From Eubacteriales bacterium (GTDB lineage Bacteria > Bacillota > Clostridia > Oscillospirales > CAG-272): a stretch of 64,000 nt of DNA. Numbering within the stretch: position 1 is the first letter of the stretch; every line of letters begins with the position of its first letter. The position numbers and the translations under genes were made by a program. Shown here in pieces: positions 34,397-64,000 of this stretch. The notes beneath the pieces are model-generated. The model was not told the DNA's origin. It saw only the letters and a program-made list of their open reading frames with translations, and ran no database searches. The stretch lies in contig JAZQGU010000070.1 in NCBI GenBank assembly GCA_045540175.1, positions 41,412-105,411 on the forward strand. Reading direction: 5' to 3'.

Positions 34397-34430
34397 CCGC
34401 CCTCGGAAAAAACCGAGGGCGGATTTTATT
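34397..34430. terminator. Bidirectional hairpin terminator
   Basis: CCGCCCTCGG-aaaaaa-CCGAGGGCGG followed by ATTTTATTT. Confidence 0.85.
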
Positions 34431-34815
34431 TCGGCAAGCCGTTAATAGCAAAATAAATTATCATCGCAATAAAATCGACGGCGAGAAGTACACCGAACAC
34501 TATGCATGCGAGCTTCAAAGCTAATTTCGCCTTGCGCTTATTATTTTCGGTCATCATCCGATCCTTAATGCTCGAAAGCTTGTCGGACACAGACGGAGAT
34601 ACCTGTTGCTTTTTCGTCAGCTCTTCCTTCAAAAGGTAGTCTATCGAGCAATCGAAGATCTGTGATAACTGAATTATCTTATCGGTTTCCGGAAAAGTTA
34701 TATCCGACTCCCATTTACTGATCGACTGACGCGAAACGGAAAGCAATTCCGCAAGCTGCTCCTGCGTGTAATTCAGTTCCTTTCGCTCCTTTGCAATTTT
34801 CTCACCGAGTGTCAT
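34426..34815 (-). CDS. XRE-family HTH protein with a C-terminal transmembrane helix
   Basis: HTH segment is LNYTQEQLAELLSVSRQSISKWESDITFP. The C-terminal TM is LACIVFGVLLAVDFIAMIIYFAI. The start is at ATG 34815 behind GGAGG. Confidence 0.75.
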   Translation of the reverse strand: MTLGEKIAKERKELNYTQEQLAELLSVSRQSISKWESDITFPETDKIIQLSQIFDCSIDYLLKEELTKKQQVSPSVSDKLSSIKDRMMTENNKRKAKLALKLACIVFGVLLAVDFIAMIIYFAINGLPK

Positions 34816-34926
34816 TGTTCTCGATCCTCCTTTACCGTTATCGCTTATATTATACCGCATAAGAGCCGTTCTGTACACCGATTTTACGGTTCATAATGTA
34901 AAGTCATGGTTGCATTTCTTTTTCGT

Positions 34927-34959: not shown

Positions 34960-35691
34960 TTATCTTACATAGGGCTCGGAATCGGTTATCTTTCTGACGT
35001 GAGGACAGCCGATTTCTTCGCGGTAGATGGGAGCGACATAGCGGACTGCATTGCGTATGATAAGCTGCACTTCCGGCACGTGGAAGGTCGGGAAGGTCTC
35101 GTGGCCCGGCTGGAAGTAGAATATCTTACCGTTACCGCGCTCATAAAGGCAGCCTGAACGGAAGACCTCGCCACCGGAATAATTACCGATAAGGAGAAGC
35201 TTATCGGGCGTGGGGATCACGAAGGGCTCACCGTAGGTTTCCTCGGCAGGAAGCTTGAAATAACGATCGATTCCCTTTGTGATGGGATGAGACGGCTCTA
35301 TTACCCAAAGTATCTCCTCGTCATTCGATTCGCGCCAGGTAAGATTGCAGGACGTTCCGAGAAGGTAGCGGAATGGCTTTGAATGATGTGCGGAATGGAG
35401 CGCTATCAGTCCCATTCCCGAAAGCACCGCGTCGCGCACCAGATACGCGACCTCGTCAGGAACTCTGTTATGTGCTATATGTCCCCACCAGATGAGAACA
35501 TCTGTATTATCAAGGACTTCCTTTGTTATACCGCAGTTTTCATCGTCGAGAGTTGCGGTTTTTACTTCGATATCCTCCTCTTTACCGAGAAAATCTGCAA
35601 TTGCCTGATGGATGCCGTTCGGGTATATATCTGTTACTCTTTTATCGGTTTTTTCGTGGACGAATTCATTCCATACGGTTACTCTTATCAT
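34960..35691 (-). CDS. ThuA domain protein (trehalose-utilisation-like, class-I glutamine amidotransferase fold)
   Basis: MIRVTVWNEFVHEK...YPNGIH.AIA.FL...DVLIWWGHIAH..V....V......G.GLIALHSAHHSKPF matches the ThuA family pattern as I recall it. Confidence 0.75.
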   Translation of the reverse strand: MIRVTVWNEFVHEKTDKRVTDIYPNGIHQAIADFLGKEEDIEVKTATLDDENCGITKEVLDNTDVLIWWGHIAHNRVPDEVAYLVRDAVLSGMGLIALHSAHHSKPFRYLLGTSCNLTWRESNDEEILWVIEPSHPITKGIDRYFKLPAEETYGEPFVIPTPDKLLLIGNYSGGEVFRSGCLYERGNGKIFYFQPGHETFPTFHVPEVQLIIRNAVRYVAPIYREEIGCPHVRKITDSEPYVR

Positions 35692-35706: not shown

Positions 35707-37194
35707 TTATTCTTCAATAATAATTTTATATTTGTTTGACTCGTCATCCGACGTGTGTGCCAGGATTACCTTTTCGCTTTCCATATATCCGAAAAGCGCG
35801 GTCAGGTGGGTTACGAAAACGTATTTTGTCTTCAGCTTGGGCATAAAACGCAGAATGTCGTATATGCTTTTCGTTCCCTCTTTATACGAGGTCGTTTGGA
35901 AAGTCTCGTTTAACAGGATGAGTGAATAGGGGGTCAGTCGGTCAAGTATTGCCGCTATTTCCCTTGCCTCCTGGTCGAATCTTCCTCTCGCGTCACCCTT
36001 TAAGAACTCCTCTTCTGCCGAGGAGAAATGTGAGAAGAAGCCGCGGCGTATGCTCATTTCCGCGCTTTCGGCAAGAACGGGAAGCCCTGCCTGCGAAAAG
36101 AGCTGTGCCGCACCAATCGCACGAAGATATACCGTTTTTCCACTATCGGTAAGACCTTTGACGAGCAGTCCTGCGGTATCGCCCTCTAGTGACAGGTCGT
36201 TCGGAACCGTTTTACCGCCGAGGCCGTTTGACAGGAGCACGAGTTCACGAAGCCCTTTCATCGAAAAACGGTCACATTCCTCCGGCAGGACCTTCGGAAG
36301 TGTGAGCGGAACGCCTGATTCCTCCGCTTTTTCGGCGTAAAGGATCGCCGCTTCATAGAACATCAGCTCGTTTGACAGTCCGAAAAATGCGTCGTAAACG
36401 TCGTTCGTTACCTTTGTCAGAGCCGAATCAATGCGCTGAAGCGCCTCGTTAAGAATGTACTGTGCATCGTTCAGAGGATCCTCGCCTGCGCCCGAAAGCA
36501 CAGCTTTGATCTCGGTACCGTCATCGTCCTTCTTCTTTGCGAAAAGCTTGGAAAACGCGTTTGCTTCAGCTTTTCTTTCCGATATATCCGAAAGATCACA
36601 GGAAAGCAGTCTCAGGGCTCTGTCAAGTGTAAATACTACCGTAAAATCGAAATCCGACGGAGTTTTATAGCGGAAGCGCTGTGATATCGAAACGAGCTCT
36701 CCGAGTGCCTCGTTTTCCGTCATGCTGACGCACCAATCTCTTATTGCAATAAGCCCTTCGCTCTTTATCGGATACTGTCCGAGAGTTTCTCCTATCGTTC
36801 CGAAGAAGGATGCTATCGTCGACGGGAAGATCGCAGTTACCTTAAGCGATGCGAAGGTATGCTCGAGAAGCGCTTCGGAATTGATCTCCGATCCGCTTCC
36901 GTTCACGGCGCTCAGCTTCATTTCCTGCCAGTCGCTTTTGATCTTATCGTAACGCAGAAACAGCGTTTTCAACACAGGCAAAAGCCCGTCTATATTCTTC
37001 AGATCCGAGTATATTTCCTGGCGGAAATCAATGTTTTCCTTTTTAGTCAACGGTTTTTCGATAACCGATATAAAATATTCTGCGCGTCTTTTGTCCTCGA
37101 CGATTTCTCTAATTGCTCGGTCGACCGAAAGGTCGTAGATCACTTTGCATTCGGCATAATTATCAGGGATCTTACTCAGAAGACTGAATTTCAT
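35707..37194 (-). CDS. MutS-related ATPase (domain V core only), downstream paralog
   Basis: Walker A region is KGLTDSGKTVYLRAIGAAQLFSQAGLPVLAES, Walker B is LILLNETFQTT, followed by VFVTHLT. There is no mismatch-binding, clamp or Smr domain. The protein ends at KYKIIIEE. Confidence 0.75.
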   Translation of the reverse strand: MKFSLLSKIPDNYAECKVIYDLSVDRAIREIVEDKRRAEYFISVIEKPLTKKENIDFRQEIYSDLKNIDGLLPVLKTLFLRYDKIKSDWQEMKLSAVNGSGSEINSEALLEHTFASLKVTAIFPSTIASFFGTIGETLGQYPIKSEGLIAIRDWCVSMTENEALGELVSISQRFRYKTPSDFDFTVVFTLDRALRLLSCDLSDISERKAEANAFSKLFAKKKDDDGTEIKAVLSGAGEDPLNDAQYILNEALQRIDSALTKVTNDVYDAFFGLSNELMFYEAAILYAEKAEESGVPLTLPKVLPEECDRFSMKGLRELVLLSNGLGGKTVPNDLSLEGDTAGLLVKGLTDSGKTVYLRAIGAAQLFSQAGLPVLAESAEMSIRRGFFSHFSSAEEEFLKGDARGRFDQEAREIAAILDRLTPYSLILLNETFQTTSYKEGTKSIYDILRFMPKLKTKYVFVTHLTALFGYMESEKVILAHTSDDESNKYKIIIEE

Positions 37195-38660
37195 TATGAT
37201 TCCTCCCCGTTTTCAAGCTTACCAAAGCGATTTTCAAGCGCCTCGAAGGTCAGACCGCATCGGATGAGGATATCCTTTGCGTACGATCCGCCAACACTCT
37301 TTTGGCGCGCGATCTTATATGTGCGCCGGTTTTCGTCGTTAAGGTCTATAAGCACGTTCAGATACGGTATTTCGCTTTCTCTAAGGCCATGCTGATGAGT
37401 AATGTAGAGACCGAATATTCTCTTTTCCCAAAGCTCTGACGCGAGCTTTTCCGTCATCATTACGGCGTTTTCTTCATTCGTCGTAGAGTAAGTTTCATTA
37501 AGGAGAACAAGCGAATCTTCATCCATATTTTCAAGAATCGCTTTTACTCTGTTGTTTTCCTCTACGAAGCGTCCGCTTCCGTCGAAGCGTTCGTCGCGCG
37601 GAAAATGCGCGAACACCGAACTTATATCAGAGATCGCCGCGCTTTTACACGGAACGGGACATCCGAGAAGAAACATAATGACCGCTATACCGACTGTTCG
37701 CAGATACGTCGTTTTACCGCCGCCGTTTGCTCCCGTGAGGAAGTAGAACGGTTCTTCCTTTGTAAACCTGATATCGTTCGGGACGATATTCGTTTCGTTT
37801 TTTGCAAGGAGCGAGACGTCGTATGCCTCGGTAACGCTGATAATTCTGCCCTCTGCTACCGTAGGATAAGTCAGCGGAATGCCCGCATCCCGGATCCTGT
37901 CGATAAAATCAAGCATCGTCAGATAAAACTCTATTTCCTTGCGGTAATAAATAATATTTTTACGGTAATATCCGAGAAACTCGCTCTTGAAGCTCTTAAG
38001 CTCCTTCATAAGCTCGGGGCGCAGACACGCGGCACCGTAAATTATATCGGGAGAAAGCTCACGGCTTTCGGGGCTTTTGATCTTCGGGATATCGGTTCCG
38101 AGAATTTTGGCGCAGGAAATAATACCGTCAAGGAAGGTGTTTTCACCGCCTGCGGTCATTTTGACCTTATTTCCCGAAACCTTTACCGAGCTTGTCAGCG
38201 CCTTTTCCGCTTCGGGTATGAGCGAATTAAGCTTATCGCTCATTTCTTTATACTGCGTGTTTTCGCTTTCCTCGTGAAGAGCCGACGCAAAGCGGCTCGA
38301 CAGCGGGTCGGATAAATCACACCTTGAAGCAAGATCGGTAAACTCTCTCACAGCTTGAGAAAGAAAAGCGAAGATCAAACATCTTCCCTCATCGGTAGAT
38401 GCTTCCTCAAACGCAGAGTTCAAGGTATAAATATCGCAGGATATTTCGTAAAGCTTTCTGAATCTGTTTCTGTTTTCACAGTCGCTGAGGCGCATAAAAA
38501 GCTCCTGCCTCGGGAGAATATTATCCTTTTCACAGGGGACCGATGCGCTTTTTGCGACTCTTTTCGGTATGAAGTTAAGAAGCTGGAGATCTTCAAAGAC
38601 CGATACGTCGATCGCCTTTTTCCTCGGCTTCGTATAATACAGCAGACTGGGGTATCCCAT
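37194..38660 (-). CDS. MutS-related ATPase (domain V core only), upstream paralog
   Basis: N-terminus is ..PSLLYY. Walker A region is LTGANGGGKTTYLRTVGIAVIMFLLGCPVPCKS, Walker B is LVLLNETYSTT, followed by YITHQH. The MutS-like tail is YKIARQKSVGGSYAKDILIRCGL. Its stop shares one nucleotide with the next ATG (TAATG). Confidence 0.75.
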   Translation of the reverse strand: MGYPSLLYYTKPRKKAIDVSVFEDLQLLNFIPKRVAKSASVPCEKDNILPRQELFMRLSDCENRNRFRKLYEISCDIYTLNSAFEEASTDEGRCLIFAFLSQAVREFTDLASRCDLSDPLSSRFASALHEESENTQYKEMSDKLNSLIPEAEKALTSSVKVSGNKVKMTAGGENTFLDGIISCAKILGTDIPKIKSPESRELSPDIIYGAACLRPELMKELKSFKSEFLGYYRKNIIYYRKEIEFYLTMLDFIDRIRDAGIPLTYPTVAEGRIISVTEAYDVSLLAKNETNIVPNDIRFTKEEPFYFLTGANGGGKTTYLRTVGIAVIMFLLGCPVPCKSAAISDISSVFAHFPRDERFDGSGRFVEENNRVKAILENMDEDSLVLLNETYSTTNEENAVMMTEKLASELWEKRIFGLYITHQHGLRESEIPYLNVLIDLNDENRRTYKIARQKSVGGSYAKDILIRCGLTFEALENRFGKLENGEES

Positions 38661-38797
38661 ATAGTATTTCCCTTCTTTTCTTTTACCTCTTAATTATACC
38701 CGCAAATTGCTTCCATTGCAAGCCTTATTTGTAAATATTTGCCCCCTTTACTATTGAAAAATGCCTTTTTATATGTTATAATTTCAGTATTAAATAT

Positions 38798-63614: not shown

Positions 63615-64000
63615 TTACTTCAATTCAACAACGGTAACTCCGCCGTCGCCCTCGCCGTAAATGCCTGCGCGGAAGCTTTTTACGCGCGGATCGTTTTTAA
63701 GGTGTCTTTTAAGTGCATCACGAAGTGCACCTGTGCCTTTACCGTGAATAAGCGTAACGCTCTTTATATTCGCCATAATTGCCTCGTCGAGGTACTTATC
63801 GGTCATAAACCACGCGTCGTCGCCGTACTGACCGCGAAGGTCAAGAGACGACGTGAAGGTCTTATTGAGCGTCGCCTGGTACTTAGATGCGGCTATACGC
63901 TTTTTGTCGGCGGTCGTGACCTGGACTGCTTCCTCCAGAAGTCGGAGATTCTTTATATTGCTTCTGATGTTCATAAAGCCCGCTTGAACTGTCACGTTGC
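63615..64000 (-). CDS. mutS2: Endonuclease MutS2, C-terminal Smr domain (the 5' part is beyond the window end)
   Basis: LDLRGQYGDDAWFMTDKYLDEAIMANIKSVTLIHGKGTGALRDALKRHLKNDPRVKSFR is a typical Smr domain. The ORF continues past position 64000. Confidence 0.85.
   Translation of the reverse strand, partial: NVTVQAGFMNIRSNIKNLRLLEEAVQVTTADKKRIAASKYQATLNKTFTSSLDLRGQYGDDAWFMTDKYLDEAIMANIKSVTLIHGKGTGALRDALKRHLKNDPRVKSFRAGIYGEGDGGVTVVELK

Follow-up and report, generated by a model that had tools for sequence, protein, structure and literature searches.

A divergent clostridial gene pair of the MutS4A/MutS4B type

The MutS4 subfamily was defined by Lin, Nei & Ma (2007, NAR 35:7591); its members carry the MutSac domain only, and the MutS4A and MutS4B genes are direct neighbours, the stop codon of the first sharing bases with the start codon of the second. 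Kim et al. (2017, Front Microbiol 8:2578) reused this overlap as the 'signature structure' of MutS4 and listed such pairs in many phyla, several Clostridia included. The MutS4 branch of the MutS family has thus had a name since 2007, but no assigned function. In the present work we studied two adjacent genes, A and B, in a 64,000-nt stretch of DNA from an Eubacteriales bacterium (contig JAZQGU010000070.1 of assembly GCA_045540175.1; the whole stretch is called the window below), which an initial annotation had described as translationally coupled MutS paralogs. The feature is a divergent addition to the already described subfamily; the observation is thus real and not new, and the initial annotation overlooked that the stop/start overlap it reported is the published MutS4 signature.

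Assignment of the gene pair to MutS4

The pair is made up as follows (ORF, open reading frame).

37194..38660, minus strand: gene A, MutS4A-type subunit (ORF of 488 aa; Pfam MutS_V only)
35707..37194, minus strand: gene B, MutS4B-type subunit (ORF of 495 aa; Pfam MutS_V only)
37192..37196, minus strand: TAATG stop/start overlap (TAA stop of A and ATG start of B, with base 37194 in common)

The junction of the two genes reads ...ATAATGA... in the window sequence, and the coordinates, lengths and one-base overlap given by the initial annotation were reproduced from the ORFs and the sequence. All Walker A, LLNET, THQH/THL and tail motifs that it quoted were also found again, namely GANGGGKTTYLRTVG, LLNETYS, THQH and YKIARQKSVGGSYAKDILIRCGL in gene A, and GLTDSGKTVYLRAIG, LLNETFQ and VTHL in gene B, whose C-terminal end is KYKIIIEE. 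Both ORFs hold MutS domain V, as had been stated, with MutS_V the sole Pfam domain in each (A 2e-20, B 1.6e-14). Searches for MutS_I, II, III, IV and Smr with Pfam returned none in A or B even at E <= 1, which agrees with the earlier description of proteins free of mismatch-binding and nuclease domains and shows that the connector is absent as well. A and B are paralogs of each other (30% identity across the C-terminal 219 aa, E 1e-22), and the closest PDB sequence matches of the pair are the ATPase domains of MSH2, Taq and E. coli MutS, MSH3 and MutS2; all PDB homologs of the pair are DNA-bound MutS or MSH proteins. The pair is additional to a separate MutS2 of the same genome, as the initial annotation had recognized from a canonical MutS2/Smr gene: the minus strand at 63615-64000 of the window encodes its Smr-domain C-terminus (LDLRG...HGKGTGALR), and the N-terminus lies beyond the window end.

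Membership in the better described MutS-like families was tried and rejected. MutS1 was dismissed because MutS_I/II are absent and PRK05399 (cutoff 480 bits) gave scores of 77 and 52, MutS2/RqcU because the Smr domain is absent and TIGR01069 (cutoff 400 bits) gave 62 and 43, and KamC (NCBIfam NF052383, cutoff 300 bits, a lysine 5,6-aminomutase reactivase) because its model gave 71 and 40 and lysine 5,6-aminomutase neighbours are lacking. Sub-threshold matches to the KamC model were given by A, by B and by named MutS4 proteins, and it was the top such match for MutS4B-type proteins. The whole sub-threshold NCBIfam pattern of named MutS4 proteins was the same as that of A and B, and because these named members also match only below threshold, there is no curated NCBIfam model for MutS4.

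Named MutS4 sequences came from a tblastn search of A against plasmids, which returned weak relatives, mostly at two places per record. All six of the loci inspected from this search (6/6) contained tandem genes of ~505-540 aa with a 4 nt overlap, one gene being split in locus L093 and in locus L095. Accessions of Table S3 of Kim et al. (2017) are present in L091, L093 and L096; that table names the M. branderi proteins WP_083134047.1 and WP_083134046.1 as MutS4A and MutS4B, and Rubrobacter WP_051590080.1 and Rhodococcus WP_064074690.1 as MutS4B. When the clostridial A family was aligned by hhalign, it matched MutS4A with prob 100, E 3e-55 and a score of 413 (residues 1-478 to 1-506), compared with scores of 224 for MutS4B, 132 for MutS1 and 106 for MutS2. 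The clostridial B family matched MutS4B with E 1e-42 and a score of 320 (residues 1-467 of 495 to 1-447), compared with 206 for MutS4A, 97 for MutS1 and 98 for MutS2. The hhalign alignments of the pair families to E. coli MutS1 covered only E. coli residues 568-732.

A neighbour-joining tree was built from 194 domain-V columns and rooted with E. coli and S. aureus MutS; the original Thermoanaerobacter, Chloroflexus and Thermoplasma MutS4 sequences are not part of it. In this tree clostridial A grouped with MutS4A (bootstrap 68%) and clostridial B with MutS4B (57%), leaving MutS2 and MutS1 outside, and reciprocal BLAST likewise paired A with 4A and B with 4B. E. coli K-12 supplied part of the MutS1/MutS2 outgroups and the rest came from Staphylococcus and gut records wrongly labelled as 'phage'; an Smr fragment used as the seed for a MutS2 homolog search returned fragments only. 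Two of these records, L098 (OR844988.1, 1839-6476) and L099 (OR845002.1), are deposited as 'Staphylococcus phage SA 1306 Kay' (UNVERIFIED_ORG) and carry chromosomal mutS-mutL and mutS2; they look like host contigs, not phage. Because hhalign, the neighbour-joining tree, reciprocal BLAST, shared motifs and the gene-structure signature agree, we filed the pair as MutS4A/MutS4B, as part of a distinct clostridial sister clade.

Families A and B each comprise hundreds of full-length, length-conserved homologs in uncultured Clostridia/Eubacteriales, annotated as 'hypothetical', 'MutS-related protein' or 'mismatch repair ATPase MutS'. The profile search with family A returned 1,249 representatives at E <= 1e-30, the best 150 of which were all full-length, and a scan of genome contigs with a single protein gave only 3 close relatives among metagenome-assembled genomes; E. 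coli genomes had no DNA match to the pair. Clostridia of the gut, the rumen and digesters thereby contribute to MutS4 a large clade that had carried no subfamily label and that counts >150 representatives at 50% identity. For the locus comparison, 90 loci were fetched and dereplicated at 80% identity into 41 clusters. In 88/90 loci A precedes B on the same strand, the two exceptions stopping at contig ends, so the tandem arrangement noted in the window is conserved. The translational coupling that had been proposed for the window pair also extends to its relatives: A and B overlap in 31 of the 41 dereplicated loci, by 4 nt in 27, by 1 nt in three (as in the window) and by 8 nt in one.

These loci bear on whether the pair might be one gene split by a frameshift, the case that the initial annotation had named against itself, or a decaying pair of pseudo-ATPases. 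Such an artefact would fit the base common to both genes, a Walker B motif without the canonical Asp and a few split relatives (A in L073, gene 1 in L093, gene 2 in L095). Each gene, however, encodes a complete paralog in which Walker A, Walker B and the H-loop are all present, no A-B fusion was found in the 88 paired loci, and both families keep their length and many invariant residues, the Walker B Asn among them, across lineages down to ~33% identity. We rejected the split-gene artefact on these grounds and regard this explanation, decay included, as hardly credible. Because each family has hundreds of full-length homologs and an invariant Walker B Asn-Glu, the pair is not a product of chance. 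The split copies themselves, at L093 5451-7086 (Rubrobacter gene 1), L095 6876-8424 (Burkholderia gene 2) and L073 523-1996 (a metagenomic A), are possibly frameshifts, pseudogenes or assembly errors.

Architecture and nucleotide sites of A and B

AlphaFold2 models of A and B, made from 18-sequence alignments, were confident and reached a pLDDT of 83.7 and pTM of 0.80 for A, and a pLDDT of 82.5 and pTM of 0.81 for B. The domains and the codons of the Walker B Asn lie in the window as follows.

37878..38660, minus strand: A residues 1-261, lever-like helical N-terminal domain (AlphaFold2, pLDDT mostly >90)
37296..37877, minus strand: A residues 262-455, MutS domain V ATPase (Pfam, PDB sequence matches)
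37197..37295, minus strand: A residues 456-488, C-terminal helix pair SYAKDILIRCGLTFEALENRF (AlphaFold2 helices 460-467 and 472-479)
37497..37499, minus strand: codon AAT of A Asn388 at the Walker B position (window sequence; 38/38 relatives)
36310..37194, minus strand: B residues 1-295, helical N-terminal domain (AlphaFold2 model)
35710..36309, minus strand: B residues 296-495, MutS domain V ATPase (Pfam, AlphaFold2), without C-terminal helices
35908..35910, minus strand: codon AAC of B Asn429, Walker B (window sequence; 39/39 relatives)

The two models share one layout, in which a helical N-terminal half is followed by a small beta-hairpin insert, more helices and the ATPase domain. The hairpin of A (residues 157-170) sits where the MutS clamp would be, and that of B (residues 182-206) is longer and is accompanied by a disordered loop at residues 214-237. 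In Foldseek searches, the whole chain of A aligned with MutS/MSH2 over ~500-580 columns and the whole chain of B with MSH3, MSH2 and MutS over ~530-590 columns; because these alignments span ~500-590 columns, we assign a lever-like domain to the ~260-300 N-terminal residues. Thus the models indicate that a lever-like domain, with only a vestige at the clamp position, has been retained in A and B besides the ATPase, and the earlier description as an ABC-type ATPase core only was too narrow. Alignment by hhalign showed homology between the N-terminal domain of A and the N-terminus of named MutS4A, and no profile-level similarity of this domain to the N-terminal parts of MutS1 or MutS2. Neither Pfam nor the AlphaFold2 models gave any extra domain in A or B, including effector domains (nuclease, TIR) and transmembrane segments.

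The asymmetry of the C-termini, which the initial annotation had noted, is also seen in the models, where the helix pair is present in A only and B ends at the last strand. It is a family trait, since the C-terminal tail measures 32-43 aa in 38/38 A homologs and 0-14 aa in the B family. In a joint alignment the C-terminus of A aligns with the SYG/GL motifs of MutS1, MutS2 and MutS4A, and its modelled helix pair is the counterpart of the dimerisation helix-turn-helix of MutS.

Conservation of the nucleotide site was counted by alignment column over dereplicated relatives (n=38 for family A, n=39 for family B). The Walker A Lys-Thr and the Walker B Asn-Glu are present in every member, 38/38 and 39/39 in both cases. 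The H-loop His is found in 38/38 A proteins, and the corresponding His463 of B in 28/39, being replaced by R in 8, W in 2 and Q in 1. The residues that are invariant in all 38 A proteins are K316, T317, D356, G363, R364, N388, E389, T421 and H422, and those invariant in all 39 B proteins are K353, T354, G404, R405, F406, N429 and E430. The Walker B Asn is common to clostridial A and B and to named MutS4A and MutS4B, whereas E. coli and S. aureus MutS and MutS2 have Asp; the signature-like motif reads G-[RK]-[FL] in all four MutS4-type groups versus S-T-F in MutS1/MutS2. The changes from DE to NE in Walker B and from STF to G-[RK]-[FL] are derived characters common to the MutS4 groups. That the Asn is invariant and not variable points to selection. 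Taken with the Phe at the H-loop of named MutS4A, these motifs amount to a coordinated remodelling of the nucleotide site. Both the invariant Walker B Asn-Glu and the G-[RK]-[FL] motif offer clear targets for mutation.

Proposed function, genomic context and alternatives

We propose that the products of A and B would be made at ~1:1 and would form an asymmetric heterodimer through their ATPase domains, as in MSH2-MSH6. An obligate A/B heterodimer, as suggested in the initial annotation, is plausible from co-occurrence, coupling and subunit asymmetry, and it is reasonable because the genes are adjacent in 88/90 loci and never fused. In this dimer A would supply the C-terminal helix-turn-helix clasping its partner and a complete nucleotide site, and the site of B would be partly degenerate, the H-loop His being gone in about a quarter of lineages. 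The ATPase may be slow and switch-like, as suggested by the loss of the Mg2+-liganding Asp and the gain of a basic residue in the signature motif, and binding and release of nucleotide would drive two lever arms open or closed around the substrate. The structure at rank 2 in the Foldseek search with the A model, PDB 3k0s, is presumably the E. coli MutS D693N mutant; this mutant was reportedly made to weaken Mg2+ coordination, and its ATP switch is said to be slowed. The substrate would most likely be nucleic acid, such as intermediates of DNA recombination or repair, because of the family ancestry and one weak mycobacterial experiment, in which recombination of an rpoB fragment was higher in M. 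smegmatis with the MutS4 operon (27/36 vs 5/16; Kim et al. 2017). The window pair would belong to the core genome and be transcribed from a predicted sigma-70-type promoter of its own. As a whole, we consider it probable that the MutS4 pair is an asymmetric ATP-switch heterodimer whose most likely substrate is nucleic acid.

Several observations weigh against this explanation. The recombination assay of Kim et al. (2017) is indirect and used a heterologous host and small samples. The clamp has shrunk to a hairpin, and encircling of DNA is therefore uncertain. No consistent DNA-metabolism neighbour was found among the 41 clusters. Identity of clostridial A/B to named MutS4 is low (25-32%), and the bootstrap values for the A/4A and B/4B groupings are moderate (57-68%, from 194 columns by neighbour joining). 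The top sub-threshold match of MutS4B-type proteins is, as described above, the model of a MutS-like enzyme reactivase. Finally, the named sister clade is found within islands for the response to fluoride, together with enolase, pyrophosphatase, CrcB and transporters, and this context hints at a role that does not necessarily involve DNA.

The fluoride riboswitch RF01734 was found by Rfam directly upstream of the MutS4 pair in M. branderi, Alicyclobacillus and Burkholderia plasmids, and in a Klebsiella plasmid it heads an antiporter-USP-pair operon; its positions in the plasmid loci are L091 5572-5632, L092 3234-3294, L094 5149-5210 and L095 5132-5196. The plasmid pairs are flanked by eno, ppa, gpmA, crcB, DUF190, antiporter, USP and transporter genes, and a dynamin-family gene (L095 8469-10574) is convergent with the Burkholderia pair within its fluoride island. 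Fluoride is unmentioned by Kim et al. (2017), and the 'MutS4 island' of M. yongonense that they describe holds enolase and hydrogenase/NADH-dehydrogenase genes. Weinberg (2010) listed 'mutS' among the genes controlled by the crcB motif; combined with the Rfam scans of this analysis, that gene list suggests that the 'mutS' under fluoride control is MutS4.

These findings raise a less likely alternative, namely that the MutS4 heterodimer is a remodeller or 'reactivase' that spends ATP on forcing open or resetting a macromolecule other than DNA, such as a Mg2+-dependent enzyme blocked by a tightly bound inhibitor, or a ribosomal or membrane complex, with the clostridial clade as a constitutive version of the fluoride-induced plasmid pairs. 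The placement of named pairs behind fluoride riboswitches, amid genes of enolase, pyrophosphatase, phosphoglycerate mutase, CrcB, DUF190, antiporter and USP, and of 'mutS' in the crcB-motif regulon (Weinberg 2010) speaks for it, as do the sub-threshold match to KamC, a reactivase of 508 aa, the action of MutS2 on ribosomes known from the literature, the Band_7 or YlmH genes that flank the pair in some clostridial lineages, and active-site changes that take away a Mg2+ ligand. It is opposed by the absence of RF01734 from the window and from all 41 dereplicated clostridial clusters, by KamC scores far under the cutoff, by neighbour genes that are never universal, and by P-type ATPases that are just 27-29% identical between clostridial and plasmid pairs. 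A more specific and still more doubtful version holds that MutS4 heterodimers may be Mg2+-sparing, fluoride-insensitive ATP switches that remodel or reactivate a non-DNA target and do not serve in DNA repair; we draw this from the Walker B Asp to Asn change, the Arg/Lys in the trans signature motif and the analogies with KamC and ribosome-splitting MutS2. If true, such a switch would explain the place of the sister clade in the fluoride regulon.

Fluoride regulation of the window pair itself was rejected, since an Rfam scan of the whole window returned no family, hence no RF01734, and none was found in any of the 41 clusters. The expression signals and the downstream gene of the window pair are as follows.

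38693..38721, minus strand: sigma-70-like promoter TTGCAA-17-TATAAT (a consensus match only, 10/12)
34960..35691, minus strand: ThuA-family gene (Pfam ThuA 2.8e-33), 15 nt downstream of B

The predicted promoter is ~32 nt upstream of the A ATG, leaving a 5′ untranslated region too short for a riboswitch. Because the clostridial clade would be expressed without the fluoride switch of the named plasmid and actinobacterial pairs, it gives a chance to study MutS4 in a chromosomal, apparently housekeeping setting, in which the function of the subfamily can be asked. No terminator-like site was found between B and the ThuA gene in the window, and the ThuA gene is probably co-transcribed with the pair; among the fetched loci L001, a close relative, is the only one with a ThuA gene after the pair, so that this gene is a lineage-specific neighbour outside the conserved unit. 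Further downstream, a strong bidirectional GC-rich hairpin with a 10 bp stem (34397-34422) follows an XRE-HTH gene (34426-34878, minus strand) and is likely the end of a transcription unit that may start at the predicted promoter of A. The other window neighbour of the pair is a divergent YqeG-type HAD phosphatase gene.

Across the 41 dereplicated clostridial clusters no neighbour gene is universal. A Band_7/SPFH gene directly adjoins the pair on the same strand in 6/41 clusters, in two arrangements (upstream genes of ~300 aa, downstream genes of ~327 aa), which seems too frequent for chance; no Band_7 gene was found in the window. Loci with Band_7 genes are L004 (6822-7730), L005 (7087-7992), L008 (7071-7970), L009 (3678-4661), L018, L021, L025, L061 and L063. 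Downstream of the pair, a gene of a YlmH-type S4 RNA-binding protein is present in 6/41 clusters (L042 3388-4284 and 5 others), and dGTPase-dnaG-rpoD is upstream in 4-6/41 (L025 1865-5981); both likely reflect lineage synteny. YlmH is tied to ribosome quality control, as is MutS2. A P-type ATPase gene is upstream of the pair in 4/41 clusters, and a conserved link to one P-type ATPase across clades was rejected given the low identity of the clostridial and plasmid ATPases. A cobalamin riboswitch ~650 nt downstream of one pair (L013 9613-9824) presumably controls the next gene.

The initial annotation had also offered a DNA-sensing, conflict-related module, for which a two-gene ATPase cassette with named relatives that move horizontally on plasmids could be cited. 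An anti-phage ATPase pair is nevertheless very unlikely. PADLOC gave P-loop-level matches for A only (E >= 8e-4) and none for B, which we read as noise, and the defence hypothesis was rejected as nothing meaningful came from this search. Moreover, the pair has none of the effector domains looked for (nuclease, TIR, transmembrane segment), its neighbours in the window and in the clostridial clusters are housekeeping or variable genes and form no defence-island context, and the plasmid relatives sit in fluoride-resistance islands. Phage records gave weak partial matches to the pair only.

Comparison with described MutS-type systems

Like MutS2 (RqcU), A and B have no domains I/II, and the lever-plus-ATPase core of MutS2, at ~490 aa, is of similar size; an RTYK...GL C-terminal motif is in common. 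Unlike MutS2, which is a homodimer, the window proteins are without coiled coil, KOW and Smr. KamC resembles them as a MutS-like protein of ~508 aa with the ATPase at the same position, and differs in that no aminomutase genes are near the window pair. The 'mutS' genes controlled by the crcB motif encode homologous proteins, and the plasmid pairs are both named MutS4 and located behind RF01734, whereas the window pair has its own predicted promoter and a short leader.

The best PDB sequence and structure matches of A and B are to MSH2-MSH6 and MSH2-MSH3. In these eukaryotic heterodimers, to which A/B can be likened, paralogous subunits are joined in an asymmetric ATPase whose nucleotide sites are unequal. 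Unlike the MSH heterodimers, A and B are without domains I and II and the mismatch-recognition motif, the clamp is vestigial, and Walker B reads NE and not DE.

The named MutS4 pairs are closest. The clostridial clade departs from them in the B tail, which is wholly lost whereas named MutS4B keeps about half of it, in the H-loop of A, which keeps the His where named MutS4A has Phe, and in the absence of a fluoride riboswitch and of a fluoride-island context from the window pair. In common with MutS4A/B, only MutSac (domain V) is detectable in A and B; the paralogs are adjacent in the order A then B, with a stop/start overlap in the window pair; Walker B is Asn-Glu, the signature-like motif carries a basic residue, and A has the C-terminal helix pair; and profile homology extends over the full length of A and over residues 1-467 of 495 in B.

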